A stretch of DNA of 64,000 bases, taken from IMG/VR virus record IMGVR_UViG_3300037041_001930, one strand, 5' to 3'. The position numbers and the translations under genes were made by a program. Position 1 is the first letter of the stretch, and each line of letters starts with the position of its first letter. The DNA comes from a virus (taxonomy: Duplodnaviria > Caudoviricetes). Below the pieces are notes generated by a model. That model made no database searches and had not been told where the DNA came from. It was given only the letters and a program-made list of their open reading frames with translations. This document shows positions 9,220 to 25,749 of this stretch, piece by piece.

Positions 9220-9290
9220 ACGATTCCCTTACTCTATCGAGGTCAAAGATGGCTGGATTCTGGCAGGTCAAGTCGAGGCGCAAGTCGGGG

Positions 9291-9485
9291 TCAGAACCCA
9301 GACCCCTCAGCGGCGTCCAGCGCAGCCGCCCATGCCACGGCATCAAAGGTGACAAGCACGTTGGGCTGCGAGGCAAAGCGGACAACAACCTTGTCGGTGC
9401 CGTAGGGCTGCCACATCACGGCTTCACGCACATTGTATGTGGCACCGCCGACAACAGGAGTAAAGAAGTTATCTGTGACAGCCAT
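9291..9485 (-). CDS. Free-standing ~60-aa module, second copy
   Basis: 64-aa ORF: FTPVVGGATYNVREAVMW...VVVRFASQPNVLVTFDAVAWAAAL. TAATG overlap with the upstream gene. Confidence 0.75.
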   Translation of the reverse strand: MAVTDNFFTPVVGGATYNVREAVMWQPYGTDKVVVRFASQPNVLVTFDAVAWAAALDAAEGSGF

Positions 9486-12400
9486 TATGACCTCGACTTC
9501 GACGCCTGCATGGCGGTCTCAAAAGCATTGAGATCAAAACTCACGTTGACATCAGGGGAATCAGCGAAACGTACAAGTGAAGGCGTGCTACGGTTCCAAG
9601 TCGCCACCCAATCCAGGTTATAGTACACGCTACCCCCATAGGGGTTCCACCACTGGAGACTCGAGGGCAGCGCTGCCAGGAACGTGGCGCGGGGGATGCG
9701 AAGCGGGGGATTCACTGGCATCTGGGAATCCTCGGCCATCGCCGAGTACGCCATCCAGACATCCACGTACCCCAGGGCCGGGTAATCCACATACCTCTGA
9801 ACGAAGAGCACGTTGAGCGTGGTCTGCCCAATGATGAGGTCAGGCAACGCCGAAGCTATAACAGGGCTGCCGAGGAGAGTCGGACTACTTGAACGCGAGA
9901 GGTCCCACTGGGTCAGGAACCAGGCACGACTGAAATGGATCGGGGAGTATGGGTTGCCAAAGAAGATCGCCGATATCGACTGGGTGTCGTCCTTAAACGA
10001 GACCAGCCAACGGAGATCATAGATAGCGCCATTACTGGATTCATAGAAATGTGAGCTACCAAAGATAACGTTGTGGTTGTCCCCGCGATCCTTGATACCC
10101 CCGCGCGCATACACCGGGCTCCCCGCACTGGCGTTACACCATGCTATGCCCTGAGAAGAGTTTCCTTTGATGTAGCTGCTCGAGCTCGCACCAGACCGGC
10201 TCACGAGATTCCAGGCCCCGGCGGCCTGGAGATCGAGACCCTCGATCTTGATCTGGCCACCACGCAGGGTTGCCCCGACATAGTTCAACAGTGCCGCTGA
10301 AGTCAGCGTGAGTGCACCAAAGGCGTCGAGCACCCTGGCGTGGAGATCCACACTGGACCCCGCGAGAGCCGTGAAGGCACCAGTGGTGAGTACGACATCA
10401 TTAGAAAGATCGAGAATCGTGCCGGCACCAGAGACCAGGATGGAAGGGAATGCTGCGGGGAGCCCACCGTTGATCTGGAACTGCTGACGCACCCCACCAA
10501 CGAAGTCAACTCTGGGGACTCCATTAGAGACCACGTTGACCCCGGCCCCGATGACCAGCTTCCCGGTAAACTTGGCAAGAGATGCACCTGCACCTGAATG
10601 CGGCATCGCCGCGATACCCCATCGAGTCGTACCCCCGGATCTACCGAGGGTGACATCACCATACGTGATGTCGACGACATCTGCGTTTCCAACGGGGTAA
10701 TCGAAAAAGTAATCGCTGCCGCCACCGGCGACATAGGTGTACGTGAAACTCGAGATATTCGCGATGACTCCGTCACGTGCCTGAATCTGCATGACCTTGT
10801 TACCAGATGTGCGCTTCGCGAGGAGACCCGCGATATTCACGTTTCCTGGCCCCTCGAATCGACATTCGAGATTTGCGGACGCACCAGTGGCCTCCATGGT
10901 GAAGCCACCTTGGAGGTCAACACTACCGTTGAATATGAGCCTACACAGGTTGCCCCAGAGACCCTTGAGAGTCACGGGAGACGTGAAGACGTGACCAGTG
11001 GGCACCGAGTAGATCGTGTTGCCACTGGGACCCTCACGGAACTCAATGGGGCACGTGAAGACCACACTGGCAGGGGCCGGCAGAGGAGTCGACTTCAGGG
11101 TGTCCAGGATGAGCGTGGGGGTTCCAGCAATCGTACTCCCCGACCCCGTGATCAGAGTGGGGTAGCTGGCCACACCCCCAGCTAACCGCAGATTCCCAGA
11201 CACAAGGGTGAGAACAACCCCGGTTCCAAGTGTGATCCCGAGGAGATTCGCACCAGGTCCGACAACAGTGATATTCATCAACTTCTCGGTACCACCCATG
11301 TCTAACACTGCGGAGTAGTTAAATGCGAGACGAGACGGTATCTTCTGAGAAGGCGTGGAACTGAATACCACTGAGGCCCCTGCGCAATCCACGGCCAGGA
11401 CACCGCCCCAACTATTGTTGGCATCAGTGATCGTAAACTTGGAGAAATCGAACACGTAGTTGTCGCGTCGAAGCGTGACATTGTTGTTCGCGTAATTTAT
11501 AGTTAAACCAGTTTCGACCACAGTAAGCGCGAAAGTCCATGTGAGCGCAGAGTCAATGGCAAGCCCGAAGACTTTGGAGCCCAGGGTAAGATTGCCGGTG
11601 CCCGCAGGGGAGTCACCCCCGATGAAAAAGTAATGGTTGGTGTTCAGCCCACTCGCGGTGAGCCCACCTGCGAAGGTGTTCGCCCCGGTGACATGGAAAC
11701 CGTTGTCATTCTCCATGGTGTTCTTAGTGGTCTGGGACACACAGGACAGCCCGGCCGAATAGCCGATCTCACTGCCGATGGCCCCTGACAAGTTGACCCG
11801 GCACCCCGCACTGGTCGGCATGATTATGAATGTGCGTGTCCCGGCACCATTGAGCAGCGTAATCGCACCTGTGAAATTCACAGGGCTCTGCGCTCTCACA
11901 TGGAGCTTTACAGTGCCCCCGACTTCGATGGCACCACTAAACGTGTAATTGGCACTCAAGCCCGCAGGCATCGAGATCGTAGAAGTCGTGTTGCCGATCC
12001 CCAGTGCCATGTTGGTCGCAAAGGTTCGGGTAGCTCCTGCATCGACATACCACTCGAAGTAGGAGCCCTCGTAGAGGGAGATCTTTCCGGTTCCAAAGGA
12101 GTGAGTAGTCGTGGCGCCAGAGTAACTCAAGGAGAGTTGAACCCCAGCGGCGACTACTGTATTCCGGTGAGCCGGGAATGTCGTCGAACTCGAGTGCGCG
12201 TAAGCCCCACCATTGACCAGGATGTCATGTGCACCGGTCACAGAACCCGTGGTGAGCAGGAATCCCGAGCTCGTGTTGTCGATCGTGAAATCCGTCTTCA
12301 GCAGAAGCGGAGCCGAGATCGTAACAGTGTTGGATCCCGAGACCTGGTAGTACCGGGAGATCGAGAGGTTGCCACCATTCGATGCCGCCAGGGTCTTTTC

Positions 12401-12853
12401 ACCACTGGAGTCACTGGTGATGGTCAATATCGTGGTGTCCCCGTAGAAGGTGAATACCTTGGTCCCCGAGTTCGTGAGATGTAACTTGGTGATGACTTTA
12501 CCAGCGAAGTCGTAAGTAGCCGTGGATTCAATGACCCATCTACCCGTGGCATCGCTTACAGTCACCCCACTGGATAACGCGAGAGCGGTGACCCCAGCAG
12601 CCATAACTGCGAAATCAAAGGTGCCTAAGCTGAGGGTGCCCGTGTAACCCGTGAAGACCGCAGTGTTGACCGTGAGATTCGCACTCAGGGTACACGCATC
12701 ATTGTTCCCCGCACCACTGCCATCAAAACGGATGTCATCGGCGGCAAGAGAGCCCGCGGCGGCCGCAGTGGTGCCCCCGATGTCCGTGGTGTAGTTCTGA
12801 CGCTTATTCGCGTCGGAGTCGCCGACTTTGTTGTGCCAATAAAGGGTGGCCAT
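9485..12853 (-). CDS. Large beta-helix (autotransporter-passenger-like) fibre/adhesin protein with three C-terminal ~60-aa modules
   Basis: 1122 aa, Gly/Thr/Ser-rich beta-strand repeats such as VTGANTFAGGLTASG, NLSGAIG and GTGKISL. No C-terminal autotransporter barrel. Confidence 0.75.
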   Translation of the reverse strand: MATLYWHNKVGDSDANKRQNYTTDIGGTTAAAAGSLAADDIRFDGSGAGNNDACTLSANLTVNTAVFTGYTGTLSLGTFDFAVMAAGVTALALSSGVTVSDATGRWVIESTATYDFAGKVITKLHLTNSGTKVFTFYGDTTILTITSDSSGEKTLAASNGGNLSISRYYQVSGSNTVTISAPLLLKTDFTIDNTSSGFLLTTGSVTGAHDILVNGGAYAHSSSTTFPAHRNTVVAAGVQLSLSYSGATTTHSFGTGKISLYEGSYFEWYVDAGATRTFATNMALGIGNTTSTISMPAGLSANYTFSGAIEVGGTVKLHVRAQSPVNFTGAITLLNGAGTRTFIIMPTSAGCRVNLSGAIGSEIGYSAGLSCVSQTTKNTMENDNGFHVTGANTFAGGLTASGLNTNHYFFIGGDSPAGTGNLTLGSKVFGLAIDSALTWTFALTVVETGLTINYANNNVTLRRDNYVFDFSKFTITDANNSWGGVLAVDCAGASVVFSSTPSQKIPSRLAFNYSAVLDMGGTEKLMNITVVGPGANLLGITLGTGVVLTLVSGNLRLAGGVASYPTLITGSGSTIAGTPTLILDTLKSTPLPAPASVVFTCPIEFREGPSGNTIYSVPTGHVFTSPVTLKGLWGNLCRLIFNGSVDLQGGFTMEATGASANLECRFEGPGNVNIAGLLAKRTSGNKVMQIQARDGVIANISSFTYTYVAGGGSDYFFDYPVGNADVVDITYGDVTLGRSGGTTRWGIAAMPHSGAGASLAKFTGKLVIGAGVNVVSNGVPRVDFVGGVRQQFQINGGLPAAFPSILVSGAGTILDLSNDVVLTTGAFTALAGSSVDLHARVLDAFGALTLTSAALLNYVGATLRGGQIKIEGLDLQAAGAWNLVSRSGASSSSYIKGNSSQGIAWCNASAGSPVYARGGIKDRGDNHNVIFGSSHFYESSNGAIYDLRWLVSFKDDTQSISAIFFGNPYSPIHFSRAWFLTQWDLSRSSSPTLLGSPVIASALPDLIIGQTTLNVLFVQRYVDYPALGYVDVWMAYSAMAEDSQMPVNPPLRIPRATFLAALPSSLQWWNPYGGSVYYNLDWVATWNRSTPSLVRFADSPDVNVSFDLNAFETAMQASKSRS

Positions 12854-13546: not shown

Positions 13547-14056
13547 CTACTTGGTCACCGCGGTGTCGACAAGGGTATCCATCAGGGTATCCCAATCCGG
13601 GTACTTGATACGGCTGGGATCAATGCTGGGGCCCCCTGCAGTCAACGCAGTCGCGGGATCCAGGGAGGCCATGAGATCGAGGCGGACCCCACGGACGTAC
13701 TCGGCAAGGAAGGCATACTGGTCGACGAGCTCGGCCTCGGCCTGGGCGAGCTCCCCGACGGCATACCAGGCGTGCCGGGCGTAACCCAGCCTGGCCTCTA
13801 CGAGGAGGGCTCTGGCACTGCCCACATGCTTGCGCGCACAATCCAGGCATGTCGGCCGATTCGCGAGCTCGGCATTGATCTCGGTGAGGTCGACCCCACG
13901 CTCCTGGGCTTCCACGGCGTTCATGATAACCGTAGGGGGCACCCTTCGATCCTCGAGCCCTTCCATCATGGCGCGTACCCTTGGGAACGTATCCCTGGTG
14001 ATGCCCTCTGGGGCCGCATCAGGCTTGACGTAGCGGGTGTCGAATTCATGTGGCAT
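13547..14056 (-). CDS. Hypothetical protein with CxxCxxKH motif
   Basis: 169-aa ORF containing RPTCLDCARKHVG; SD-like GGAG upstream. Confidence 0.7.
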   Translation of the reverse strand: MPHEFDTRYVKPDAAPEGITRDTFPRVRAMMEGLEDRRVPPTVIMNAVEAQERGVDLTEINAELANRPTCLDCARKHVGSARALLVEARLGYARHAWYAVGELAQAEAELVDQYAFLAEYVRGVRLDLMASLDPATALTAGGPSIDPSRIKYPDWDTLMDTLVDTAVTK

Positions 14057-14066
14057 GGGTGGGCTC

Positions 14067-16544
14067 CTATTTGATCACGGTGAGATAATTGGTAAGCCTG
14101 TTGAACTCCAACTCAGCAAGAATCTGGTTGTGATGAAGCGGCTTCAGAAGGGCTGCTAGGGCGTCTGAAGCCGGGTGCGTACGACTCACGAGAACCCCGA
14201 GCCCAAACACCGCTGGGATCAGATATAGATCAAAATCCCCTGACCACATCTTGATGAAGTCCTCGATGGCAGTCAGGACTCCATTGCGCTCGCCCCCCGC
14301 GCGTAACGCGATGAAAAACTTTCCATTGCTCCGGAAACCAGATCCGGAGTGCACCATATCATTCAAGTCGACCCCAACGGAAGACGAGTTCGGTAGCAGG
14401 AACTCATCGGGGATACTGCTGGGGTCGTAATACTGGTCACGCCGCCCCCAGGGCCACCCTACATCGTAGATGACTGCTAAAAGCGGTTTCTTGTGGCGAT
14501 CACAGCTGACCTTAATAGCAGTCAACTCGTTATAGACGGTAAACCAGTTGTGATCGCCATCCAGCGACCACATATCGATGGCACCCGCACGGGGGATGGC
14601 GTCCAAACTGCGCCCACAGAACTTAGACAGCCTTTCTCCCTCGTTGAATTGCTGTAGCGAGTTGGGGTCGGTGTCCACCATTAACACTTTGCCGATGGCG
14701 CGCCCCGCACAGTAGTCCACCCATCGGCGCGTCATCCCACCGCCCTCAACACCGATCTCACAAACCGTGTTCACGCCGGCGGTCTCCGCGATATCCAGCA
14801 AGAGATTTGAGAACGTGCTCAAGGAGTGAAGCAGCGGGGGGCGTGAGAATCCATGCTTGGGGTTCACGTTAAAAAGAGCGTTGGCGAGATCGTACGCCTT
14901 AGGGGCTTCTGTGATCCTGGTGGCCTGGGCGACCTCAGGGGGCACATCAACCTGGGGGTGTCGCCACATGATATCGATCTCGCGGTACGTGATCGTGGAT
15001 GAATGCCGTGTAATCGTGGCGGCGACTCCACCGGGGGTAATCCCACTGAGATCTGGTTTATACAGGGGCCATAGGGCGACCGCGGCGTCCACAGCCTTAT
15101 GAGCGACATCAATGAGATCGGGATGATTCTCATGGGGAGCCCGAACAGGGGTGTCCCCTCTATACGTGATCAGAGAACCCACGACATCTTGATTGAAACT
15201 CTCGATACTCCACTTGGCACGCGTGAGTTCAGGTGGCATCATGACTGGAATGCAGTTCACGTTCGTATTGATACCTGCGAGGGCAACCATGCTGAACTGA
15301 TCCATGGGGCCTAACCCGAGGCGCGCCCATGCCCCCTTGAGAGATCTCCCACTCGCACGGATGTCGACCACTGTACGATCACGCAAGCACCCACGTAGAT
15401 AGGCGGCATAGGCGCCATCTGCGCTGGCCTCCGCCAAAGCGTTTCGGGATATGTTGACGATCTCAGCCTTCTTGCCCGTGATGCACTCGTACAGCTTGGT
15501 GAGTAAACAACAGTCCCGATAAATGAAAACTGGCTCGCGTTTCAAGGTCTCCTGCAGCCACTTCACGCCCATGCACAAGAACGGGATGTTCATGAGGACC
15601 TGCTCGGTCCACAACTGAGATCTCACACAATCCTTGGAGATGTGATATGGGTTGCTCCGCACGACATGACGCAACCAGGGGTACAAGGAGGGTACGTGTT
15701 TCGCGTACTCCCAGATATTACTGTCCCTGAAGAATAGCGCCTCGAGCCCGGCGGCGCGTGGGTTCGCGACATCACCATGGACGGCATCCCCGTAATGGCA
15801 CTGCGTGGTGCGCGCCAGGGGATCCCGCCACGTCGCCCCCGATGACTTGCCACCATAGGTAACCAGGATCTCGACACTCGCGGTGAGTCCGCACTTCACG
15901 AGAATCCGTCTGATGGCCTCAGCGGGGAGATACATGTCGGAGATGATGAGATCACCGTCTCGCACGAGACCCATGTTGGCCACGATTGGGTAAGCCTGGT
16001 TGACCTCCTCATCGATCTCCCGTGCCTTGGCAGCTGCGGTCTCGGATTCCGACCACTTGAACACCCCTGCAAGGCTGGCATAGATGGCATCAAGGGTGGA
16101 GCGCGTCGCCCCCTCGGCGGCGCGCCGTGCAGCCGTGAATCCAGGGATCCCGGTGGCCTTCTCGATGATCTCGAACACGGCAACGGGGTGTACACAGCGC
16201 CGGCCCACCAAGGTGTCAAAGCAATCCCAGCTCTGACGCCCCGTGAGATGCTCGGGCTCATGAATGGGTAACAGGTAGTGATATAAATTGGTGGTGTGGT
16301 AGTGACCTAGGAAACAATCCCACTTCATATCCTGGATATTGAAAGTTGAGGTCACCCCACCGGTCTGGTTCAGGAGAACCAAGGAGCCCTCGCGCAACTC
16401 CCATGACGACTCATTGGCGTGCGCGTACTCCCCGATCTTACCCCCTGGCAATAATCGCATGGGGCCGTAGGGCTGATACACCCCGTCCTTCCAGACCCTG
16501 CCAAACATGTAACGTCGCTGGAGAAACTCGGGGCTCGCTGCCAT
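14067..16544 (-). CDS. Multidomain glycan-modifying enzyme: HAD phosphatase + PRTase-type (ribofuranosyl) transferase + class I SAM methyltransferase
   Basis: HAD motifs SWDCFDTL, IISDMYLP, GGKSSG, HYGDAVHGD. PRTase-like FIYRDCCLL, ISRNAL, TVVDIRASGRSL. Methyltransferase_24-like VCEIGVEGGG, SLDGDHNWFTVYNEL, YDVGWPWGRRD, NGVLTAIEDF. Confidence 0.8.
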   Translation of the reverse strand: MAASPEFLQRRYMFGRVWKDGVYQPYGPMRLLPGGKIGEYAHANESSWELREGSLVLLNQTGGVTSTFNIQDMKWDCFLGHYHTTNLYHYLLPIHEPEHLTGRQSWDCFDTLVGRRCVHPVAVFEIIEKATGIPGFTAARRAAEGATRSTLDAIYASLAGVFKWSESETAAAKAREIDEEVNQAYPIVANMGLVRDGDLIISDMYLPAEAIRRILVKCGLTASVEILVTYGGKSSGATWRDPLARTTQCHYGDAVHGDVANPRAAGLEALFFRDSNIWEYAKHVPSLYPWLRHVVRSNPYHISKDCVRSQLWTEQVLMNIPFLCMGVKWLQETLKREPVFIYRDCCLLTKLYECITGKKAEIVNISRNALAEASADGAYAAYLRGCLRDRTVVDIRASGRSLKGAWARLGLGPMDQFSMVALAGINTNVNCIPVMMPPELTRAKWSIESFNQDVVGSLITYRGDTPVRAPHENHPDLIDVAHKAVDAAVALWPLYKPDLSGITPGGVAATITRHSSTITYREIDIMWRHPQVDVPPEVAQATRITEAPKAYDLANALFNVNPKHGFSRPPLLHSLSTFSNLLLDIAETAGVNTVCEIGVEGGGMTRRWVDYCAGRAIGKVLMVDTDPNSLQQFNEGERLSKFCGRSLDAIPRAGAIDMWSLDGDHNWFTVYNELTAIKVSCDRHKKPLLAVIYDVGWPWGRRDQYYDPSSIPDEFLLPNSSSVGVDLNDMVHSGSGFRSNGKFFIALRAGGERNGVLTAIEDFIKMWSGDFDLYLIPAVFGLGVLVSRTHPASDALAALLKPLHHNQILAELEFNRLTNYLTVIK

Positions 16545-16550
16545 ATCAGA

Positions 16551-18995
16551 TCACCTCGTCATGAAAGTGTAGGGGCCGACACCATCCCGGAAGTACCAGG
16601 CCGCGCCGACTAATGACCATGTTGGTTCCCCTGCGTTCGGGACCCCACGCGCCTTCGCCACGGGGTCAAAGTACCACCAGGGGAGTTCAACGAAATCAGT
16701 GGCCCTGATGTTGTCTGAGAGCACGGAGTCAAGCGACTGCATGGGAACCTGATTCATCCTAACCCTGGCCTTGCAGGCATCCCCCCAGGCCTCAACAGTG
16801 ACTGATGTGGCCGCAGCTCCGACTACCCTGGTCTGCACCTTGCCCTGGAGATCCTTGTAGCCAAAGGCCCCGGCACCAAGAGCACGGAGAGCGCTGGGGT
16901 CCCGGAGGACTTCGACATCAGCGTCGATGCAGATGCCACCGCTGGACGCGCTGAGTACCGCTGGCTTCGCGATCTCATTCAGGAGATCACGGGGGAGATC
17001 GGAGATCTTGGCCGCGAGGTCGTCTATGGCATCAGAGTCAAGACTATCGCCGGCGGCATAGAAACTAACAATGACAGCGTTGGTCTCAGGGGTGCTCTGC
17101 CACAAATTGACATCCCAGCCCAGGGCCGACAGCTTCTTGATGTTGTTGGCCACAGTGGCGGCAACCTCGCCCTCGATGGCGATGCCAATGCTCATGATGT
17201 GGATAACCTTGGGGATCGTGGGCTCATCAGCAGTCGGGGGATCCAGGGGATCCAAGCCGAATCCTTCGAGGTCGGTGAAGACGCCGGCCTGTTTGAGGAA
17301 CCTGAGGTACAGGCGTTCCTGTGGGGTATAGGCGCCCGCAGGGGGCTCCCCCCAGTACCGCATGTGCTTGGATTCAATGTGAGTGTCGATACCAGCGGTT
17401 ACAATAGTCTCCGCCCAGGTCTGTGCCCATCGAATCGCTTCGGCACCCGTGGAGAGCCCCCATGTCTCATGAATCAAGGGTGACTGTAGGAGGCGCTGGG
17501 CATACGCGGGATCCCAGACATCTGGCTTGGTCGCACTGATGTGCCGCAGTCTCGCGAGCACCTCGGCATACCGGGCACCCTGCACGGGATGGTCAAGCAC
17601 TCGAGGCCGGATTACAACTACACGCCAGGGCCTCAGTAGGGCCAGCCCGATCTCGAGGTCGTCGAGTGCACGGGGATGCAAGGGGTTCAACACCCAGTAA
17701 TCCGTGCGGGTACCCACGGGGTAACCGTCAAGACGCGGGAAGTTGACCCGTATAACGATGTCATCACTTTCGATGCCATCGACGCTTTCATCCCCGAGCA
17801 CCTTGGCAGTGGACCCATTGCCCACGATGACGGCCCTGCGGCTCCCATCGAGCTTATCGTTGTGCACCTTGATGGGCTTCGTGGACCCCGGGATATTCCA
17901 GGCACCATTGCGCGGTGGCATCCCCGCAGCGGCGAGAGCCTTGTCCTCGAGTTCGGCGAGGCGTTCAGTGGGCTTCCCGGGAGGTGTAGCCACGATCTCA
18001 GCAGTGTAGGCTGCCCATGCCGCCCTGACCCCGTCAACACTGAGTCCAGCCGAGTACCCCCAGGCGAGATCACGCAACGAATCCGTTACTATAGGGGGTG
18101 CGATTCGAGGCCTCGCTGAATCCACGGGATCCTTGAAGTGGCCGTCGTAGAGACCAGCCGAGGACTCCCTGGGGTTCACCTTGGAGTCATTGGTGGCCTG
18201 AGCCCTGGCATCAATGAAGGACTTGTAGGGGAAAGCAGTGAGCCCAGAGATCTGGGTGGTATTGAATACCTCGAATCCATGGTGGAGAAACTCGACCTGG
18301 AGCTGGGTGAACAATCCATTGAGGTACTCGAAGAGAGTATTGTTCTTAGCAGCGACTGCGGCGTCGACGACCTGATCATGGTTGTAGGCCCTCTTGGGAT
18401 CCATCTTGAAGTCGGCACCAACGAGGTAGACCCGCTTGAAACCCAGGATGTAGAGGATGCGGAGTGCAGCGACCATGGTGCTGCGACCACCTCTTACGGT
18501 ATCACTACCCTCCTGCCCCCAGTTGATGGTGTCCTCGTTCAGCCAGGTCTTGGCATCGAACTTGTCATTGCGCCGGATGAACCAGGTGTTCGGGCAATCC
18601 CGTGGGGTCTTCGCGAGGTGCTCACGAAGTGGCATGTCCTGGTAGGCCAGGGGATAGAACTTCGTGATCCCGGGATCCAGCCAGATCGAGTTCAGGAAGC
18701 GATGGGGTTCATCGAGGCCACACCAGAGCTGGGGACGCCAGCCCTGGGCGGCATTGTTGACCGCCATCGTGACGACCCCAGGAGTCGCTGAGAGCGCTTT
18801 GAGGTCGATGTCCCCTGCGCTGGGGCCCCCGCAGACCAGGAACGCCGTGGCGCCCTGGTAAGCGTGCCCCAGCCACGCGTTCTCCATCTGTGATGTAAAG
18901 AACACGGCGGGCTGGGAGCGCAGCACCCTCCCAGCCCGGGCCTCAGTTGAAGTCGTGATCTTGAAGACATCGTGACGCCCGGGGTGGGTGGTCAT
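16551..18995 (-). CDS. Triple glycosyltransferase-like fusion: Maf/DUF115-like + GT29 sialyltransferase-like + GT32 (DxD)
   Basis: Domain 1: FLVCGGPS, TMAVNN, RSTMVAALRILYILGFKRVYLVGADF. Domain 2 (from about aa 385): RAVIVGNG...IESDDIVIRVN...VGTRTD and LSTGAEAI...AGID. Domain 3: IPKVIH...GGICIDADVEVLR. Confidence 0.8.
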   Translation of the reverse strand: MTTHPGRHDVFKITTSTEARAGRVLRSQPAVFFTSQMENAWLGHAYQGATAFLVCGGPSAGDIDLKALSATPGVVTMAVNNAAQGWRPQLWCGLDEPHRFLNSIWLDPGITKFYPLAYQDMPLREHLAKTPRDCPNTWFIRRNDKFDAKTWLNEDTINWGQEGSDTVRGGRSTMVAALRILYILGFKRVYLVGADFKMDPKRAYNHDQVVDAAVAAKNNTLFEYLNGLFTQLQVEFLHHGFEVFNTTQISGLTAFPYKSFIDARAQATNDSKVNPRESSAGLYDGHFKDPVDSARPRIAPPIVTDSLRDLAWGYSAGLSVDGVRAAWAAYTAEIVATPPGKPTERLAELEDKALAAAGMPPRNGAWNIPGSTKPIKVHNDKLDGSRRAVIVGNGSTAKVLGDESVDGIESDDIVIRVNFPRLDGYPVGTRTDYWVLNPLHPRALDDLEIGLALLRPWRVVVIRPRVLDHPVQGARYAEVLARLRHISATKPDVWDPAYAQRLLQSPLIHETWGLSTGAEAIRWAQTWAETIVTAGIDTHIESKHMRYWGEPPAGAYTPQERLYLRFLKQAGVFTDLEGFGLDPLDPPTADEPTIPKVIHIMSIGIAIEGEVAATVANNIKKLSALGWDVNLWQSTPETNAVIVSFYAAGDSLDSDAIDDLAAKISDLPRDLLNEIAKPAVLSASSGGICIDADVEVLRDPSALRALGAGAFGYKDLQGKVQTRVVGAAATSVTVEAWGDACKARVRMNQVPMQSLDSVLSDNIRATDFVELPWWYFDPVAKARGVPNAGEPTWSLVGAAWYFRDGVGPYTFMTR

Positions 18996-18996
18996 A

Positions 18997-19305
18997 TCAA
19001 CTCCTTCGAGTCTTTTTCTTCTTGGCGTGCTCGCGGCGTGCGCGTGCCTTGATAACGCTGCTACGCTCTCTCAGGATCTTGAGCTGGCGGGCCTTCTCGG
19101 CCTCACGTGCCTCCAGGATTCGCTTGCGCCTGAGCGCACGGGCTTTCTCCAAGTGGTCATCACGGCTACCGGGGTGATCCCCGGTGGCCTTCTCATAGGC
19201 CGCACGTTCCTCGGGGGTCAGGATTCCCGGGGCTGCCTTGGGTTTCTCGGTCTCCTCGAGAACTGATGCCGTCGCGGCATCGATGACAGCGCTGAGGTCC
19301 TTCAT
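18997..19305 (-). CDS. Hypothetical basic helical protein
   Basis: 102-aa ORF, Arg/Lys-rich C-terminus, tightly packed with neighbours. Confidence 0.65.
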   Translation of the reverse strand: MKDLSAVIDAATASVLEETEKPKAAPGILTPEERAAYEKATGDHPGSRDDHLEKARALRRKRILEAREAEKARQLKILRERSSVIKARARREHAKKKKTRRS

Positions 19306-19796
19306 GACTTCACCTTCTTAGCCTTCGCCTTCTTCGACTTCGCAGTCTCGACACTGGAGACTTTCTTTTTCTTACTGGCTGCGGGCTGCTGAGATTTCAC
19401 TGTCTTCAACTTTTCCAGGACCTCCTTGGTAGCCATTGTCAGAGTTTTGACGATATCCTGGGTACCCTTGAATGTCGCCACCGCGGTACTCTTCAGGGCA
19501 TCGATGTGGGCCTGGGCAACCATGTTGTCCCCTTTGCGCGTGACCACCCATTGTATCCCCGCGATGGTGAGGCGCTGGGCTTCAGTCTCCACAGAACTGG
19601 CATTACCAGGGATCAGGCTCATGAGGCGTGACTGGGCCTTCAAGTAGAGCTCGCCCACGCCGCGTGGGGTCCTGATGGGGTTGATGGCTATGACTTTAGC
19701 GGTCTGGACGACGACGTTTAACATCGCGTCGATCTCCTTCATACGCTCGTAATGAGCCTGGCTGGCCGGGCTGGGGCATGCGGATTCCGATGACAT
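19302..19796 (-). CDS. Hypothetical protein with Lys-rich tail
   Basis: Start moved to MSSES (ATG 19796) behind SD AGAGGAG. Confidence 0.65.
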   Translation of the reverse strand: MSSESACPSPASQAHYERMKEIDAMLNVVVQTAKVIAINPIRTPRGVGELYLKAQSRLMSLIPGNASSVETEAQRLTIAGIQWVVTRKGDNMVAQAHIDALKSTAVATFKGTQDIVKTLTMATKEVLEKLKTVKSQQPAASKKKKVSSVETAKSKKAKAKKVKS

Positions 19797-19831
19797 ATAG
19801 TCTCCTCTGGGCGTGAGCCCATGTGGGTGGG

Positions 19832-19846
19832 TTGACTGACAGTAAA
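19832..19846. promoter_or_regulatory. TTGAC-N5-GTAAA motif copy (reads on + strand)
   Basis: GTTGACTGACAGTAAAC, identical core to the copy upstream of nrdJ, in the gap between two genes. Confidence 0.6.
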
Positions 19847-19864
19847 CCATGACTCCGTGCGGTG

Positions 19865-20146
19865 TCAAGTCGGTGGGGTGTCCGGGATATCCTTGATGGC
19901 CTGACGGGTGCGCGCGATTCCACCGGTAGCCGCGATAAACAAGTTCTGGATGTAATCCGTGCTCGCGCGTTCCTTGAACTCCTGTGCAGTTATTCCAGGG
20001 GTCCCCCCGAGCTGGGCAAGCGAGTTCCGCAAAGTCAGGGAGACCTGGTGGAGCTCAGCTGCACAGTTGATCACATTCTGAATCTCCGGTGGCAACTTGG
20101 TTGCCTGTGCCGGCTTCGAGGAGTTCAGCATTATCGTGTCCATCAT
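19865..20146 (-). CDS. Hypothetical protein
   Basis: 93-aa helical ORF directly downstream of the GT2-KpsS gene. Confidence 0.6.
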   Translation of the reverse strand: MMDTIMLNSSKPAQATKLPPEIQNVINCAAELHQVSLTLRNSLAQLGGTPGITAQEFKERASTDYIQNLFIAATGGIARTRQAIKDIPDTPPT

Positions 20147-20154
20147 ATAGTCCC

Positions 20155-21900
20155 TTAATCAATTGGTTTGAGCCCGAAGCGTTGGAGAACATCCCCAATG
20201 CTCGATGTACGCTGAACTCTAAGTGCCCAGTACCCGGCGAGAAGACGCTCGCGGTGGCGCCAGGGGTGGACCTGCAGGGGGCACTTCCCCAAGGCGACCA
20301 CGGGCACCCCAATCATGGCGGCCTCGATCAACGAGGTCGAATTGATTCCGACGACGACCTCGCTGACACGGGCGGCGTCATAGAAGTCCTTGACGACCTC
20401 GCGGCCCTCAATGCTGGCCCGTGCTGACCTCCAGGGCCGCTGGGACCCCGACTTGGGATGCGGGCGCACCACGATGTCATGACTCGGGTACATCGCGGCG
20501 ACGTGTTCAACAAACTCGCCCATGTTGCGGTAGGCACAGTGATACAAGATCTGGGAGTCATTCTCGATCTGGAGGGGGACGAGGACTCGCGATTTCTTGG
20601 GTTCCAGGGGATACTTGGCGCGGAGTTCAGAGACCCCCTCGCGGTATGCCTTGAGGTCGGCGTCGGTAACCCAGCCCAGGGGGCGCATGAGCATCGAATC
20701 CCCAGCGAAGCCATCGAGGTCGACGAGGAATGTTGAAGCCTGCGGGGCCACCCCCCACTCGAAGAAGGCATAGGGGATCTTCATGGCCTCACAGAGCGCC
20801 TTGGCGTTGCGACCATTGTGCTGGGCGCCATTCCAGATCACGACGAAGGCGGCCCTCTTGAGATCCCCGGCGACCTTGAAGAACTCGGTGTCGATGCCAA
20901 TGAAGGCGTAGGGGCGCCCCAGGGACTCCGCCCAGCGCTTCACGAAGCCCTGGCACTCGCTGCCATTCCAGCCAATGTAAACAATGGCGCCGTCATCGGC
21001 ACGGCGACCCGGGGCCTCCTCGGGCTCACATTCGCCCTGGGGGACCTCGTGGAGGCTCTCCTTGCCCGGCCAGGGATCAATGGGGGCCAAGACGGCATCG
21101 GAGGCCCTGACCTCGTAACCCATGGTGGCCCTGGTGTACACCGAGGTGAGCTCGCGTTCCAAGCGATCCGCCCACTTCGAGGGGGTCACAATCATGGTGG
21201 CACGGGTGACCCGGGCATGAAGCACGGCGACCCCGGCGTGGTGGAGGTAGAACCTCTGCGGCGACATCCAGGGACTCAGGGGTTCCTCGACGAACCCTGT
21301 GGGATTCCTGCCGAGCTCACGGTTGAGATGGTTGACCTGAAAGGGGAACTCGGCGATGACGCGCTGGGCAAAAATGACGTCATGGTTACGCATGACACCC
21401 TGGGGATACGTGATGCCCGCGTCTACAATGGCGGCGCGGCGGAAGAACGCGGCGTTATACCTCAGCGGGAACTTGCCCTCCAGGGACTGCCGGGTCACCG
21501 AATAATCGCCCCAGACCACGGAGTTGCGGACCACGGCTTCACTCGCCTTGAGCTCATGGGTCCACAACACGATGTCAGGAGACTTCTCGGCTTCCTGTTC
21601 GAGGACTGCGATACGGACTTCTTCGGAGAAATCCCTGTCGCCGTGGACCAAGATGAAGTCAGCTCTTGAGCGTGCGATGAGGAAGTTGAGGGCGGCACCG
21701 GGGCCAATGCGGTACGCACTCGTGAAGACCTCAATCCTGGAGTCAATCCCGCGTTCCTCCTCGATGAGCTCAGCGGTCTCCGCTGTGGCGGCATCACTGA
21801 ACACTAGGACGCGGTTGACCCCGCGAATCTTGAGGATGTTCTGGAGGGTGGCCTCGATGTGGGAGTTGTCATGGGTGACTAAGACGACGTCAGTGGTCAT
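20155..21900 (-). CDS. GT2 glycosyltransferase fused to a KpsS/KpsC-like (Capsule_synth) domain
   Basis: N-terminal GT-A pattern VVLVTHD...GPGAALN...ADFILVHGDRD. C-terminal FFEWG, LVPLQIENDSQI, VVRPHP, VVVGINSTSLIEAAMIGVPVVALG. Confidence 0.82.
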   Translation of the reverse strand: MTTDVVLVTHDNSHIEATLQNILKIRGVNRVLVFSDAATAETAELIEEERGIDSRIEVFTSAYRIGPGAALNFLIARSRADFILVHGDRDFSEEVRIAVLEQEAEKSPDIVLWTHELKASEAVVRNSVVWGDYSVTRQSLEGKFPLRYNAAFFRRAAIVDAGITYPQGVMRNHDVIFAQRVIAEFPFQVNHLNRELGRNPTGFVEEPLSPWMSPQRFYLHHAGVAVLHARVTRATMIVTPSKWADRLERELTSVYTRATMGYEVRASDAVLAPIDPWPGKESLHEVPQGECEPEEAPGRRADDGAIVYIGWNGSECQGFVKRWAESLGRPYAFIGIDTEFFKVAGDLKRAAFVVIWNGAQHNGRNAKALCEAMKIPYAFFEWGVAPQASTFLVDLDGFAGDSMLMRPLGWVTDADLKAYREGVSELRAKYPLEPKKSRVLVPLQIENDSQILYHCAYRNMGEFVEHVAAMYPSHDIVVRPHPKSGSQRPWRSARASIEGREVVKDFYDAARVSEVVVGINSTSLIEAAMIGVPVVALGKCPLQVHPWRHRERLLAGYWALRVQRTSSIGDVLQRFGLKPID

Positions 21901-22742
21901 ATCAGGCCTCCGACACCGTAGTCGATGGCAGCGAAGTTAATCTCCCCTCGTGGCGCCGTGGTATCGATGCCGAGGCCATGCCAGATCTCAGTGGTGACCT
22001 CGAAGGTGCCCTTGTCACCCATGGTGATCCGTGGCCATACCGCATCAGCGATGACGACGTGGTGACCACAGAAGCCCCCGCGGAGCACACATGTCTTATG
22101 GGGCAACGCGGAGGCCTTAGGAGCCCCGACGACAACCCTGGCGCCGACGTCACGCGCCAGCAGGGGATTCGCGGACAGCCTGGCCTTAATGGCAGCGCTG
22201 AGCAGCCATGCCTCGGGGTACACGACGAGATCACATGCGGAGACCATCACCGAGGTGACCTGCTCACCTGGCTTACTGGCATCGAGAAGGGTGGCACGCG
22301 AGATCACGGAGTCGAGAACCCCGAGCACCCTGGTGTCCACTGCGAATGCAAGAGGAGTGAGGATATCACGGGTGTACCAGTCCCAGAAGGATTCACCTGT
22401 CTTCAGGAGATCCGCGATTGATGACTTCGCGGTCACCGGGGTGCGCAGGATCGAGAACTTTACATCTCCCTTTACACCGGGTTCGACGACATTGGCGACG
22501 AGGACGTCCTTGGGGTTCGCGGCGAAGTGTGCCCTGGCAGCGTCGACATTGGCAGCAGGGGCATCCAGGGCGACACCGAAGACCTCGGCGAGGCTGCGGC
22601 GTGTCGGGGGCCACCACTTCATCGTGGTCGCCACGTTCTCCAACCACTCCAGGGTCCAGACCCCGAGGATGGCGTTGAATGCCACGGGGTCGGACTTCAC
22701 GGAGTCCAGGAGACCAACAGGGGATCCAGTGAATGGAGTCAT
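21897..22742 (-). CDS. Hypothetical protein, possible degenerate HK97-fold capsid paralogue
   Basis: 281 aa. The spine-helix-like SIADLLKTG..FWDWY...LAFAVDTRVLGVLD and the C-terminal G....EIWHGLGI recall large-phage capsid proteins (pattern only). Confidence 0.45.
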   Translation of the reverse strand: MTPFTGSPVGLLDSVKSDPVAFNAILGVWTLEWLENVATTMKWWPPTRRSLAEVFGVALDAPAANVDAARAHFAANPKDVLVANVVEPGVKGDVKFSILRTPVTAKSSIADLLKTGESFWDWYTRDILTPLAFAVDTRVLGVLDSVISRATLLDASKPGEQVTSVMVSACDLVVYPEAWLLSAAIKARLSANPLLARDVGARVVVGAPKASALPHKTCVLRGGFCGHHVVIADAVWPRITMGDKGTFEVTTEIWHGLGIDTTAPRGEINFAAIDYGVGGLI

Positions 22743-24106
22743 GAGTTCCTCGTCAAACGGAGACCACGGAAGGCGTCAGCGAAATCGATGACGCATGTAT
22801 AACTCAGGGTGACTTCAAGAATGCCGGATTTCGCTGCCTTTGTCTTCTCAGCCTTGGCTACCTTGAGTTCCTTTTCCTCAGCGCAGGCACGAACAAGGGC
22901 CTCCTCGAGCTCAAGAGACTTGTCACTCCTGGCCTGGGCGACCTCAGTGGCGAACTCGGGAAGCACGGGTTCCTGAGGTGTCTTCAAGAAGTCCTCAAGG
23001 GCCTGCTTGGCTGTTGCCGCCTTGATCACGGCGGCGCTATGGGCTTTCGTGGCCTCGTCGGCCGCAATCTTCCCGATGTCCTTGATGCGGATGCCATAGG
23101 CCCAGTGGTCTTCCTTGAACACACCGCCAGGACGCTTGAACACCGCGATGCCATGTGGCAGCGGTGTCGGGTCTTCCACGGCGACCTGGGCTGCCTTGAG
23201 ATCTCCGATGACTTCACCATTGGCGAGACCAATGGCAGCGTACATCTTGGAGTCCATGAGCACGGCATCGTTATCCAGGGTCAGCCTGACGAGAACATCG
23301 TGCTCGGGCCTCGTGGTGTCCACAAAGATGGTGTGGCCATCCAACGCGATATCCAGGTAATCCGCGATGCCCCTGCAGAGATGGTTGGCGAACCATTGCC
23401 GGAATGTCACACCTTGATTCGCGATATCACCGAGATCGACGACAGCCTTGACCACGAATATCTTGGCAGTCCCGTTCTCAGCGATGCCCTCGTGGCCATC
23501 GATGAAGTCGTGACGGAGCCCGGAGAGCTCAGGGATCACGGTGCCCTGGATCTCGGGTTTCCAGAGGCGTTGAAGACAAGAGTTCTCGAGCATCCACCAC
23601 GCCGCGAACTCCCTGCAGGTCTGGAACCCCATGAGGGCGTCCTCGAGGACCGCGGCGTAGAACGCAGCATTGAGCTCCCGGGCACGCTCGGGCCCCGGAC
23701 TCGCGAGTTCCACTGGTGGTACGTACCTCGGGGGTGCCGAGAGCGAATCGATATGAGCACCAATGGTCTTCCAATCCGGGGCTGCCACGATGCCGTCGAG
23801 CTCGGGATCCTTGATGTAATTCACTGAGTTGTTTAATACGAGGTTGCCATTGGGGAGCCGAGTCATCAGGATCTTGCCGGCATTGGCACGCGCCGCCGCA
23901 ATGGCCTGCCTGAGCTCCATGGTCATCGGGAGACCATCGGGCAACGAAGCCGGGTCAACGATCTGGGCCTTGTCGACGACATGAAGCCCTTTGGCCGCGA
24001 TGTGATTCTGTCGCCATTGCCCCAGGATCTCATCCCGTTTGTGGGCAAACGAGGATCCCAAGTTGATCTCAAAACCGCCTGAGACCATGTCGCCTTCGCG
24101 CAGCAT
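22739..24106 (-). CDS. Hypothetical protein, possible degenerate HK97-fold capsid paralogue with coiled-coil insertion
   Basis: 455 aa. VDLGDIANQGVTFRQWFANHLCRGIADYLD aligns by eye with the neighbouring 281-aa protein. Ala/Glu/Lys-rich helical insert near the C-terminus. Confidence 0.45.
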   Translation of the reverse strand: MLREGDMVSGGFEINLGSSFAHKRDEILGQWRQNHIAAKGLHVVDKAQIVDPASLPDGLPMTMELRQAIAAARANAGKILMTRLPNGNLVLNNSVNYIKDPELDGIVAAPDWKTIGAHIDSLSAPPRYVPPVELASPGPERARELNAAFYAAVLEDALMGFQTCREFAAWWMLENSCLQRLWKPEIQGTVIPELSGLRHDFIDGHEGIAENGTAKIFVVKAVVDLGDIANQGVTFRQWFANHLCRGIADYLDIALDGHTIFVDTTRPEHDVLVRLTLDNDAVLMDSKMYAAIGLANGEVIGDLKAAQVAVEDPTPLPHGIAVFKRPGGVFKEDHWAYGIRIKDIGKIAADEATKAHSAAVIKAATAKQALEDFLKTPQEPVLPEFATEVAQARSDKSLELEEALVRACAEEKELKVAKAEKTKAAKSGILEVTLSYTCVIDFADAFRGLRLTRNS

Positions 24107-25115: not shown

Positions 25116-25749
25116 GACGTGTCCTCCTGCTCCTGAGTCGGCGACCATCGGGTCGGTAAAATCTCAGGATATGATAGACGCGCCCCGAGGATAGCCCTGA
25201 GGCCTGGGCGACCTTCCTGAGACTCTTGAGATCCGCGTAGAGGGTGTGCACTGCTTTGATGTCCTCGGCTTCACCAGGAAGCAGCGCCGGCCTCTTGAGG
25301 CCAAACTTCTGGGCGACATAGAAGATGGTCGCGGGTGCCTTCCCCAGCTTCTCGGCGATGTCAGACAAACGGTCTCCAGCGTCGAGACGTTCTTGCATCC
25401 ACTTCAGGATCCCGGGATCCATGTTCCGTTTCGTGAACGCATACTTGGCGTGGAACCCAGGACCATGCTTGTAATACGCGGCGCGAACACTGGAGAGCTT
25501 GTGAGCCGTGCGCACCGAGATGACCTCGAGGTCCTGAGTCTTCGCGAACTCGGCTGCCCATTCATCTGGGGACATCGGCTTGGGGCGCGGACGCTTGGGT
25601 TTCGAGGGCTTCGATCTCCGGAGATCGCTGGGCAACGGCGCCGGCTTCGAGAGGTCAATGAACCCCTTGGGGATCTCTGAGAAGGCAACCACAGGGGCGT
25701 ATCGGATCCTGTCGCCCTGCGGACTCGGTCTTCCGATATCAATGGTCAT
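25069..25749 (-). CDS. Tandem helix-turn-helix DNA-binding protein
   Basis: Two HTH-like segments: RLSDIAEKLGKAPATIFYVAQKFGL and SLRKVAQASGLSSGRVYHILR. Confidence 0.75.
   Translation of the reverse strand: MTIDIGRPSPQGDRIRYAPVVAFSEIPKGFIDLSKPAPLPSDLRRSKPSKPKRPRPKPMSPDEWAAEFAKTQDLEVISVRTAHKLSSVRAAYYKHGPGFHAKYAFTKRNMDPGILKWMQERLDAGDRLSDIAEKLGKAPATIFYVAQKFGLKRPALLPGEAEDIKAVHTLYADLKSLRKVAQASGLSSGRVYHILRFYRPDGRRLRSRRTRHAKPSTEVVDPSPVS

Follow-up and report, generated by a model that had tools for sequence, protein, structure and literature searches.

We describe here a phage operon that joins a conserved core of genes to a slot of swappable enzymes across seven related loci, a layout that we did not find described in the literature searched. 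This single co-directional operon occupies the (-) strand between about 24106 and about 13547 of the window (the whole stretch of 64,000 nucleotides that was analysed), and its products are predicted to be soluble, cytoplasmic glycan-building enzymes, of the kinds found in bacterial group 2 capsules, ABC-transporter-dependent O-antigens and flagellin glycosylation. The mechanism that we favour, with a confidence somewhat below even, is the cytoplasmic glycosylation of a phage protein from host donors, in which a short conserved glycan core would receive a strain-specific finish. An earlier note on this DNA is thereby partly confirmed in what it observed and partly supported in how it was interpreted. 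The three large co-oriented ORFs that it listed (825, 814 and 581 aa; here proteins 1, 2 and 3) are present exactly where it placed them, and of its count of about eight glycan-active domains, the support extends to seven, all of them transferase or modifying domains, while the eighth (GT29-like) is weak.

Operon layout and conservation

The operon (Table 1) is conserved in a lineage of uncultured freshwater-sediment phages of about 200-217 kb. The core common to the seven related loci comprises the genes for the 455-aa and 281-aa proteins, protein 3, the small ORFs, protein 2 and the 169-aa protein, with conservation reaching down to 31-46% identity. The variable slot has seven different fillings, all of them glycan enzymes: GT25 with SPASM; DUF5672 with GT25 and radical SAM; GT29-like with GT32; pyruvyl transferase with a 796-aa protein; pyruvyl transferase with methyltransferase and GT25/LicD; GT32 with methyltransferase; and, in the present phage, protein 1, a relative of which (about 95% identity) recurs in an independent study. 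Since each phage carries a different finishing enzyme in the slot, each member of the lineage probably makes its own glycan variant. The core genes have no relative among 50,697 GenBank phage records, so that there is no virion proteome to consult.

Table 1. Features of the operon and of the downstream fibre candidate (positions in the window).
Feature	Position	Strand	Remarks
455-aa protein	22739..24106	-	first gene of the conserved core
281-aa protein	21897..22742	-	gene overlaps each neighbour by 4 bases
Protein 3, 581 aa	20155..21900	-	GT2 + retaining beta-Kdo-transferase-like domain
Three small ORFs (93, 188, 102 aa)	18997..20146	-	between proteins 3 and 2
Protein 2, N-terminal Maf/DUF115/MptE-like sialyltransferase-fold domain	18165..18917	-	residues 27-277
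Protein 2, middle region	17406..17873	-	residues about 375-530; sialylmotif-L-like stretch
Protein 2, C-terminal diverged GT32-like (GT-A) domain	16656..17228	-	residues about 590-780
Protein 1, 825 aa	14067..16544	-	variable-slot gene; strain-specific
169-aa protein	13547..14056	-	directly downstream of the variable slot
1122-aa Ser/Thr/Gly-rich protein	9485..12853	-	fibre candidate

Even though the island had been placed within a virion gene module, its flanks consist of an intein-bearing ribonucleotide reductase and unknown or nucleotide-metabolism genes, and known virion genes were not recognised among its neighbours. Nor was a glycosidase found to correspond to the glycosidase-like gene reported about 8 kb away.

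Transmembrane segments and exporters are absent from the operon block, and no exporter scored above threshold elsewhere in the genome; neither an amphipathic C-terminal helix bundle in the style of Bcs3 or KrkA, nor a flippase, nor a polyprenyl-phosphate or membrane-type lipid-linker initiating enzyme was seen. KdsA, KdsB/NeuA, NeuB, epimerase and nucleotidyltransferase are absent from the phage record, and CMP-sugar synthetase from the complete sibling genome. The lack of nucleotide-sugar synthesis and export genes, first noticed in the window, holds across the phage record. Without synthesis of activated donors, the phage must draw all of them from the host, as had been proposed for PRPP, CMP-sugars and SAM.

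The three multi-domain enzymes

Protein 3 consists of a GT2 domain (residues 1-184, with D88-R-D90 as DxD motif) and a retaining beta-Kdo-transferase-like domain (about 300-581). Both exceed the Pfam cut-off (GT2, 28.8 bits; Capsule_synth, 36.7 bits), and profile matches were obtained to TarS (5tze, E 1.5e-11), WbbB (E 3.8e-5) and KpsC (E 1.5e-3). Following the motif definitions of PMC9587256 and PMC12887879, the catalytic motifs of the second domain (Q444xxxD448 and R479-x-H481-P482) are intact, and the spacing between Asp and His, 33 residues, is identical in WbbB. A CMP-Kdo-type retaining transferase is supported by sequence, and Kdo would be its donor.

The first domain of protein 2 carries the motif C-G-G-P-S (residues 55-59) and has a flagellin glycosyltransferase as its nearest structural relative; a Maf-type, CMP-nonulosonate/Kdo-type chemistry is supported as its predicted activity. 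Bacterial homologues of this domain also occur outside phage contexts (L009). The middle region, with the sialylmotif-L-like parts VGNGS (391-395) and DDIVIRVN (411-418), is possibly, by a weak likeness, a second, GT29-like nucleotide-sugar-binding domain. The C-terminal domain retains a DxD motif (D691-A-D693) and aligns with the relatives P0011, P0013 and P0014, which bear PF04488 (best E 4.4e-11); its profile match to the TcdB glucosyltransferase domain is weak (E 0.1), the structure model is poor over this part, and its GT32-like identity is weakly supported.

Protein 1 begins with a small beta domain (residues 1-75), followed by a HAD phosphoribose phosphatase (about 100-300; D107-C-F-D110-T111), a gPRT-like domain (about 300-545; R343-D344, S366-R367, D394, E448, N451) and a cation-dependent O-methyltransferase (566-825), in which the SAM and metal motifs are present (EIGVEGGG, 596-603; DGDHN, 662-666). 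Over residues about 95-375 it is homologous to CrpP and to the initial half of CriT (E 6.8e-36); the latter half of its gPRT domain gave no alignment to solved structures. Its reading as a ribofuranosyl module of the Bcs3 CrpP/CriT type, joined to a cation-dependent O-methyltransferase, is supported, as are the predicted addition of ribofuranose from PRPP and O-methylation. The methylated ribose of the earlier note agrees with these enzymes, as steps that are strain-specific and lie outside the conserved system. As for the families that it named, catalytic motifs are intact in the Kdo-type, HAD/gPRT, methyltransferase and DxD domains, while the GT29-like and GT32-like assignments are weakly supported.

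Accessory proteins and fibre

The genes for the 455- and 281-aa proteins overlap that of protein 3 and are present in every relative. The two proteins are paralogues (hhalign of the two families: probability 96.6%, E 5.5e-10, 220 columns), the 455-aa one having an additional N-terminal part of about 150 residues, and the profile of the paralogue family finds the 281-aa ORF at E 2.4e-7 with no other match in the genome. The 455-aa protein ends in a Lys/Ala/Glu-rich helical tail, is kept in L002-L010 at 31-83% identity, and has no match in Pfam, PHROG or Atlas. The 281-aa protein, kept in all relatives, has no match in Pfam or PDB sequence searches; in the ESM Atlas its features correspond at 0.95 to clusters of the 'Phage capsid family', with 10 of the 10 best family hits in agreement, and because just 140 Atlas features are shared, the HK97 (capsid-like) fold is a lead only, for this protein as for its paralogue. 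The 281-aa protein is also a candidate glycan acceptor.

Two of the three small ORFs have strongly basic, Lys-rich tails. They show 44-78% identity in close relatives and no PHROG match, and in distant relatives their position is occupied by Phage_gp49_66 and DUF1653 small genes. The 169-aa protein, with no Pfam or PHROG match, is the best-conserved core protein in distant relatives (56-58% in L005 and L010, versus 33-46% for the enzymes).

The 1122-aa protein (Ser+Thr content, 21%), a candidate acceptor, is probably a beta-solenoid fibre, given the correspondence of its Atlas features, at 0.91, to PATR beta-solenoid clusters. Over its first 26 residues it shares 61% identity with an 861-aa discoidin-domain protein of L008. 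The proposed linkage to the fibre stands in L002/L006, where this protein is 83% identical, and fails in L003/L007, where only its last ~190 residues remain, as a 185-aa gene; the fibre is thus exchangeable and not an obligate partner.

Proposed mechanism and alternatives

Donors, order of steps, acceptor and any benefit (shielding, altered adsorption) are what we infer. Host CMP-Kdo (or a CMP-nonulosonate), UDP-sugars, PRPP and SAM would serve as donors. Ser/Thr residues of a phage protein would first receive an O-linked acidic sugar from the Maf-like domain of protein 2; for Maf enzymes, cytoplasmic glycosylation of a soluble protein at Ser/Thr is known, as is acceptance of CMP-Kdo (PMC4065374, PMC11339370). 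Proteins 3 and 2 would then lengthen a short conserved core through their GT2, GT32-like and beta-Kdo-transferase-like domains, and the variable-slot enzymes would finish it strain-specifically. In the present phage, a beta-ribofuranose would be added by PRPP-dependent transfer and then freed of its 5-phosphate, an O-methyl cap being the other finishing step. Phage-specific 'glycotypes' would result. The 'polymer' previously envisaged is an overstatement, a short oligosaccharide suiting equally well. The likeliest acceptors would be the paralogous 455- and 281-aa proteins, co-translated with protein 3, or the exchangeable downstream Ser/Thr-rich fibre. The neighbourhood, of nucleotide-metabolism and DNA-binding-type genes and not of known virion genes, counts against this mechanism.

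A less probable alternative is that the enzymes build or modify a lipid-linked polysaccharide, either an O-antigen end or a capsule-like chain carried by a Kdo-phosphatidylglycerol linker, which is exported by the host's own ABC transporter; the altered surface might, for example, block superinfection or keep released virions from re-adsorbing. The best-characterised members of every family belong to capsule/O-antigen synthesis (KpsC/WbbB, Bcs3, KrkA, GT2/TarS, GT25, pyruvyl transferases, LicD), and these bacterial enzymes likewise have no membrane segments; since group 2 capsules, too, are made by soluble or peripheral enzymes, a lipid acceptor is compatible with the absence of such segments here. 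In its serotype-like variability, the slot is moreover reminiscent of region 2 in the loci for group 2 capsules. However, the export, lipid-linker and helix-bundle elements listed above were not seen, capsule loci do not typically have a conserved core that includes a pair of non-enzymatic paralogues together with small basic proteins, and the acceptors best known for the Maf-type domain are proteins.

Decoration of modified phage bases with a strain-specific glycan, evading restriction and other nucleic-acid-targeting defences, appears improbable. To our knowledge, no DNA-modifying system has Kdo-transferase-like, Maf-like or gPRT enzymes; furthermore, thymidylate-synthase-type hydroxymethylase, TET/JBP dioxygenase and C5-methyltransferase are all absent from the 171-kb record, and the first two also from the complete 216-kb sibling genome. 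This stands against the position of the island among nucleotide-metabolism genes (reductase, MazG-like, thymidylate kinase), the adjoining small basic proteins and HTH protein, the suitability of variable glycan enzymes for an arms race with restriction systems, and the documented hypermodification of DNA with diverse glycans by phage glycosyltransferases (bioRxiv 10.1101/2023.12.21.572611; PMC13326640). We give equally little credence to the glycosylation of a host protein (flagellin, pilin or other surface appendage) during takeover, or to a free oligosaccharide or small glycoconjugate, which the flagellin-glycosyltransferase likeness of protein 2 and the bacterial homologues of its first domain would favour, because the conserved linkage to the phage-specific 455-, 281- and 169-aa proteins suggests a phage-encoded partner.

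Comparison with known systems

The fusion of enzymes had been considered unusual, but KrkA of E. coli K13, with GT140 beta-Kdo transferase, gPRT and HAD phosphatase in one chain (PMC12887879), Bcs3, with three enzymes in one protein (PMC10299916), and the viral multi-domain transferases A064R and A111/114R of chloroviruses (PMC7826918, PMC9614988) are precedents. The phage system resembles the soluble, multi-domain KrkA in combining a retaining beta-Kdo-type transferase with PRPP-dependent ribofuranose addition and dephosphorylation, with CMP-Kdo and PRPP, the presumed donors here, coming from central metabolism. KrkA, however, builds up a polymer of Ribf-Kdo repeats for export, starting from a lipid-linked primer, whereas the phage operon has no export context, carries the Kdo-type and ribose modules on separate proteins, and has the ribose module only in the present strain, fused to an O-methyltransferase; its Kdo-type domain matches Capsule_synth/GT99/GT107 by sequence in place of GT140.

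Protein 1 has in common with Bcs3 (CroT-CrpP-CriT-SH3b; PMC10299916; PDB 8a0c, 9h50) and the 7shg ribofuranosyl transferase the nucleophile motif D-x-F-D-T and the Asp equivalent to catalytic D680, and with Bcs3 the order of phosphatase, then transferase; for E818 and E874, no counterparts could be placed by alignment. Instead of the TagF-like CroT domain and C-terminal amphipathic helices, it has a COMT/MycF-type O-methyltransferase and the small N-terminal beta domain. With WbbB (GT99) and KpsC (GT107; PMC9587256, PMC10148158), protein 3 shares QxxxD with the nucleophile Asp, (K/R)xHP with the phosphate-protonating His, and the above-cut-off Capsule_synth match; the WbbB alignment spans only about 100 residues, the general-base Glu was not mapped (E381 being a candidate), and the N-terminal GT2 fusion and phage origin are distinctive. 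Contrary to the Maf flagellin nonulosonic-acid glycosyltransferases (PDB 5mu5; PMC4065374; PMC11339370), protein 2 has no flanking Maf domains but two further transferase-like domains, and no flagellin is involved.

A capsid glycan has been shown chemically in the mycobacteriophage (Freeman et al. 2023, summarised in PMC12619734) and chlorovirus (PMC7826918, PMC9614988) systems, whereas for the present operon a glycan is predicted from the genes, and their enzymes are GT2/GT4-type or rhamnosyl/xylosyl transferases, in contrast to the capsule-type Kdo, ribose and Maf families found here. Those systems likewise rely on virus-encoded glycosyltransferases, some fused to a methyltransferase, which work in the cytoplasm with host donors and equip virion proteins with a glycan that varies among strains, much as we propose for this phage lineage.

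Organization of the operon and its surroundings

The source record of the window is a 171.6-kb IMG/VR virus genome, estimated by CheckV to be 79% complete; a complete sibling record, carrying terminal repeats, measures 216,043 bp. The three multi-domain ORFs announced by the earlier note (proteins 1, 2 and 3) are present with the claimed sizes, and all the features with coordinates are collected in the table below. From 24106 down to about 8737, every gene is co-directional, and most neighbours either overlap by 4 bases or stand 1-10 bases apart. Since, in addition, promoter and terminator scans of this block returned nothing above chance, it fits one long transcription unit.

The same note had placed this island inside a virion gene module, which its flanks do not bear out. 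Beyond the gene for a 1122-aa protein lies a ribonucleotide reductase gene, whose product carries an intein N-terminal splicing region (residues 413-476) between the two matching reductase halves (61-310 and 730-996). On the upstream side, a helix-turn-helix (HTH) protein and genes of unknown function are followed by a DHH phosphoesterase, a pentapeptide-repeat protein, a MazG-like enzyme and a thymidylate kinase, and the stretch with the DHH, MazG-like and thymidylate-kinase-like genes is a nucleotide-metabolism region rather than a structural one. The sole tail-fibre-like gene of the window is found at its very start. A glycosidase-like gene had also been claimed about 8 kb away; PHROG, Pfam and NCBIfam scans detected none in the ORFs within 10 kb. 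The gene meant may be that of a 684-aa protein, though nothing supports this; the protein, whose gene opens the syntenic block, is conserved, very acidic (net charge about -48) and free of family matches. As a separate observation, three small proteins of 102, 188 and 94 aa, in and beside the island, have strongly basic, Lys/Arg-rich C-terminal tails, and together with the HTH protein (+20) they probably represent several nucleic-acid-binding proteins in the block.

Coordinates of the features discussed in the text (window positions unless a comparison locus is named)
Feature	Position	Strand	Size	Assignment or remark
Tail-fibre-like gene	3-2072			
Ribonucleotide reductase	5179-8661	-	1160 aa	Adenosylcobalamin-dependent class II (RTPR/NrdJ-like), with intein
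Small basic-tailed proteins	18997-19868; 8737-9021	-	102, 188, 94 aa	Lys/Arg-rich C-terminal tails
Two small genes	9025-9485	-	64 aa each	Follow the 1122-aa gene
169-aa protein	13547-14056	-	169 aa	Just past the slot
Protein 1	14067-16544	-	825 aa	Slot occupant
Protein 2	16551-18995	-	814 aa	Core enzyme
Protein 3	20155-21900	-	581 aa	Core enzyme
281- and 455-aa genes	21897-24106	-	281, 455 aa	Adjacent paralogues without family assignment, retained alongside the glycan enzymes in every relative
HTH protein	25069-25749			
684-aa protein	27734-29788	-	684 aa	Head of the syntenic block
DHH/DHHA1 phosphoesterase	38591-39670	-		
Pentapeptide-repeat protein	40109-40846	-		Pfam E 1.9e-33
MazG-like pyrophosphatase	53448-54275	-		
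Thymidylate-kinase-like protein	60168-61028	-		
Discoidin-domain protein	L008:18050-20635		861 aa	F5/8 type C (discoidin, sugar-binding) domains, in place of the beta-solenoid gene
Separate C-terminal gene	L003:20284-20841		185 aa	Last ~190 residues of the 1122-aa protein
Bacterial locus	L009:10001-19620			Homologue of the Maf-like domain of protein 2

A conserved core with a variable slot

The same core recurs, with identities down to 31-46%, in seven related loci that come from independent metagenomes (L002-L008, L010). This core runs, in order, through the 684-aa protein, a 299-aa protein, the HTH protein, the 455- and 281-aa proteins, protein 3, small ORFs, protein 2, a variable position that we call the slot, and a 169-aa protein. 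Among the compared loci, the slot is occupied by protein 1 in this phage only, and its other fillings comprise a GT25 and SPASM combination; a DUF5672 protein, a GT25/DUF5672 protein and a radical SAM protein; a GT29-like and GT32 protein; a pyruvyl transferase with a 796-aa protein; a pyruvyl transferase, a methyltransferase and a GT25/LicD protein; and a GT32 and methyltransferase protein. Such swapping between close relatives implies diversifying selection on a glycan made by the phage, be it on the particle, the DNA or the infected cell. The 169-aa protein, without a Pfam or PHROG match, is the best-conserved protein of the block in distant relatives, at 56-58% identity against 33-46% for the enzymes.

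The island and the 684-, 455- and 1122-aa proteins found no match by megablast and tblastn in 50,697 GenBank phage records, bar two weak matches to the HAD part of protein 1, so that there is no annotated or proteomically characterised relative to draw on. Scanning IMG/VR with the protein 3 family recovered two loci only. The moraphages (PMC12619734), which are without RNA polymerase genes, were considered as members of the same lineage and rejected.

Enzymes of the core

Protein 3 combines two transferase domains. The first is a GT2 domain, with a Pfam Glycos_transf_2 match at residues 5-112 (28.8 bits, cut-off 23.3) and a DXD motif at D88-R-D90; the family profile of residues 1-184 matches TarS (5tze, E 1.5e-11), as well as heparosan and chondroitin synthases and GmaR. 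The second is a retaining beta-Kdo transferase-like domain, which matches Capsule_synth (PF05159) at residues 432-539 (36.7 bits, cut-off 20), a match also found in four close relatives, and whose profile finds WbbB (GT99, E 3.8e-5) and KpsC (GT107, E 1.5e-3) over about residues 440-545. Matches of this profile to designer pentatricopeptide proteins, with per-domain scores of 3-5 bits, were discarded as repeat artefacts. The signature of these transferases consists of QxxxD, which includes the nucleophile (Q228 and D232 in WbbB), and (K/R)xHP (H265) (PMC9587256, PMC12887879). Both motifs are present in protein 3 as Q444-I-E-N-D448 and R479-P-H481-P482, invariant in eight family members, and the Asp-His spacing of 33 residues equals that of D232 and H265 in WbbB. 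Known members also have a modified GT-B architecture and a general-base Glu in the N-terminal or linker region (E158 in WbbB, E66 in KpsC), for which the invariant E381 of protein 3, within FFEWG, is only a candidate.

Protein 2 contains a Maf/DUF115/MptE-like domain of the GT42-like sialyltransferase fold, with the central alpha/beta fold common to Maf, CstI/II and MptE. Its GT32-like region is less clear: PF04488 (GT32, Gly_transf_sug) does not match protein 2 itself and matches 4 of 20 relatives (best E 4.4e-11); in the alignment with those relatives, D691-A-D693 is kept and the N-terminal IPKxxHxxW is degraded, and the structure model is poor. The count of about eight glycan-active domains in the earlier note thus comes close, with seven supported and the eighth, a GT29-like (sialyltransferase) one in protein 2, weak. 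A homologue of the Maf-like domain was also seen on a bacterial contig, preceded by a pair of small genes, of which the second shows weak methyltransferase matches, and followed by a 2386-aa Ser-rich protein resembling a YD/RHS-repeat protein, which gives no clue to the acceptor.

Protein 1, the occupant of the slot

An exhaustive HMMER search returned 2739 relatives of protein 1, split over its two modules. The profile of module A (about residues 100-500) matches Bcs3 at 384-713 (E 6.8e-36) and the ribofuranosyl transferase 7shg (E 8e-10). According to the published boundaries (PMC10299916), the Bcs3 match takes in CrpP, the phosphatase, in full and CriT, the PRPP-dependent transferase, over its first half. 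The HAD nucleophile of Bcs3 is D386, in D-I-F-D-T (PMC10299916), and protein 1 carries the HAD phosphatase nucleophile motif as D107-C-F-D110-T111, invariant in 48 homologues. Among the CriT acidic residues D680, E818 and E874, the alignment reaches the equivalent of D680 only, conserved as D344 (R343-D344, in an aligned 'SRD' block). The second half of the glycan-PRTase (gPRT) has its own family-wide motifs (V-D394, I-E448-x-x-N451 and G456), its profile gave no usable sequence alignment to Bcs3 or 7shg in the PDB, and the structure model is poor at 232-520. The use of PRPP and the formation of beta-ribofuranose on a glycan acceptor are predictions from sequence. The C-terminal part has the features of a cation-dependent class I O-methyltransferase (COMT/CCoAOMT/MycF; Pfam Methyltransf_24), namely a Rossmann fold, a Gly-rich SAM motif and Asp/Asp/Asn metal ligands. 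An artefact can be dismissed for protein 1: in an independent sediment study, one contig spans it with about 95% nucleotide identity, and two further studies contain pieces of it.

In a metatranscriptome from a freshwater-sediment RNA library (run X21), short contigs with 90-99% identity map to the genes of proteins 2 and 3 and of the 281- and 455-aa pair (18054-23603), which hints at expression, DNA carry-over being a possible source. Most of protein 1 is without a contig in this run, a kind of data that cannot show absence.

Neighbouring proteins as candidate acceptors

The 455- and 281-aa genes are translationally coupled to the protein 3 gene, and their products are paralogous by hhalign (probability 96.6%, E 5.5e-10) and hmmsearch (E 2.4e-7). 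ESM Atlas features place the 281-aa protein at 0.95 to HK97 Phage_capsid clusters, while no match came from Pfam (E up to 10), from PF05065 run against the whole genome or from the PDB searched with its family profile, so we treat the capsid fold as a lead from language-model features. Complex prediction for the two proteins scored 0.01, which counts neither for nor against binding.

On the other side, the Ser/Thr/Gly-rich 1122-aa protein resembles PATR beta-solenoid clusters by Atlas features (0.91). Its first 26 residues are 61% identical to those of a discoidin-domain protein that the distant relative L008 encodes at the corresponding position, and this common start with different bodies is the pattern of exchangeable fibres, with a shared anchor and different tips. 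L003 and L007 lack the beta-solenoid body, and the last ~190 residues persist there as a separate gene, which suggests a modular tip or a chaperone-like unit and means that the 1122-aa protein is not an obligate partner.

Proposed function and alternatives

The enzymes are of the soluble kind used in bacterial group 2 capsules, ABC-dependent O-antigens and flagellin glycosylation, and neither they nor the small ORFs of the block have transmembrane segments. The statement that the window holds no nucleotide-sugar synthesis or export genes extends to the whole 171.6-kb record, where no KdsA, KdsB/NeuA, NeuB, epimerase/dehydratase, nucleotidyltransferase or ABC exporter was detected, and a CMP-sugar synthetase is likewise absent from the complete sibling genome. 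Every donor must hence come from the host, and Gram-negative cells universally contain CMP-Kdo, PRPP, SAM and UDP-sugars. As all these predicted donors are present in E. coli, the system is directly testable. Maf enzymes act in the cytoplasm on Ser/Thr of folded proteins and accept CMP-Kdo (PMC4065374, PMC11339370, bioRxiv 10.1101/2020.06.03.131540). Taken together, the soluble enzymes, the host-derived donors and the Maf chemistry lead us to favour, tentatively, a model in which a phage protein is glycosylated in the cytoplasm. The chain would begin with the Maf-like domain of protein 2, predicted to place a nonulosonic acid or Kdo on Ser/Thr; a conserved core would be lengthened by the GT2, GT32-like and Kdo-type domains, and the slot enzymes would give it a strain-specific finish, here beta-ribofuranose with an O-methyl cap. 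Candidate acceptors are the 455/281-aa pair and the fibre.

Remodelling of the host surface would draw on the same capsule-type enzymes and, with no exporter in the record, on exporters of the host; we consider it unlikely. Hypermodification of the phage DNA, for which the 171.6-kb record offers no thymidylate-synthase-type hydroxymethylase, TET/JBP or C5-methyltransferase and the complete sibling neither of the first two, seems improbable. Modification of a host protein or of a soluble product is given just as little weight.

For the glycosylation of a phage protein, a more specific version is somewhat doubtful as a whole. In it, the conserved core would act with an interchangeable 'serotype' cassette, and a dedicated capsid-fold pair or the exchangeable fibre would receive an acidic glycan, based on Kdo or a nonulosonate and made from host central-metabolism donors only.

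Comparison with known glycosylation systems

The combination of enzymes is not new in bacteria, where KrkA is a single chain with Kdo, gPRT and phosphatase modules and Bcs3 unites three enzymes, and multi-domain viral transferases exist in chloroviruses. In the searched literature, however, we found no report of capsule-type Kdo, PRPP-ribose or Maf-type enzymes in phages, nor, there or in GenBank phages, of a phage operon of such families that has both a conserved core and a serotype-like slot. To our knowledge, virion glycosylation by phage-encoded enzymes is chemically known for some mycobacteriophages only; in systems of their type the transferase genes adjoin capsid or tail-tube genes, and here the adjoining genes are those of a candidate capsid-like pair and a probable fibre. 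The operon would represent virus-encoded glycosylation, a known kind of system. It suggests that elaborate glycan systems made from capsule-type enzymes also exist in large environmental phages, and its compact, soluble, multi-domain enzymes could be of use for glycoengineering. Large self-contained glycan machineries are known in giant viruses of eukaryotes, and bacterial serotype loci share the layout of the operon, a conserved core with a slot whose finishing enzymes change from one close relative to the next. If the more specific version above is right, this operon would be a phage counterpart of both, giving each phage strain a surface glycotype of its own.
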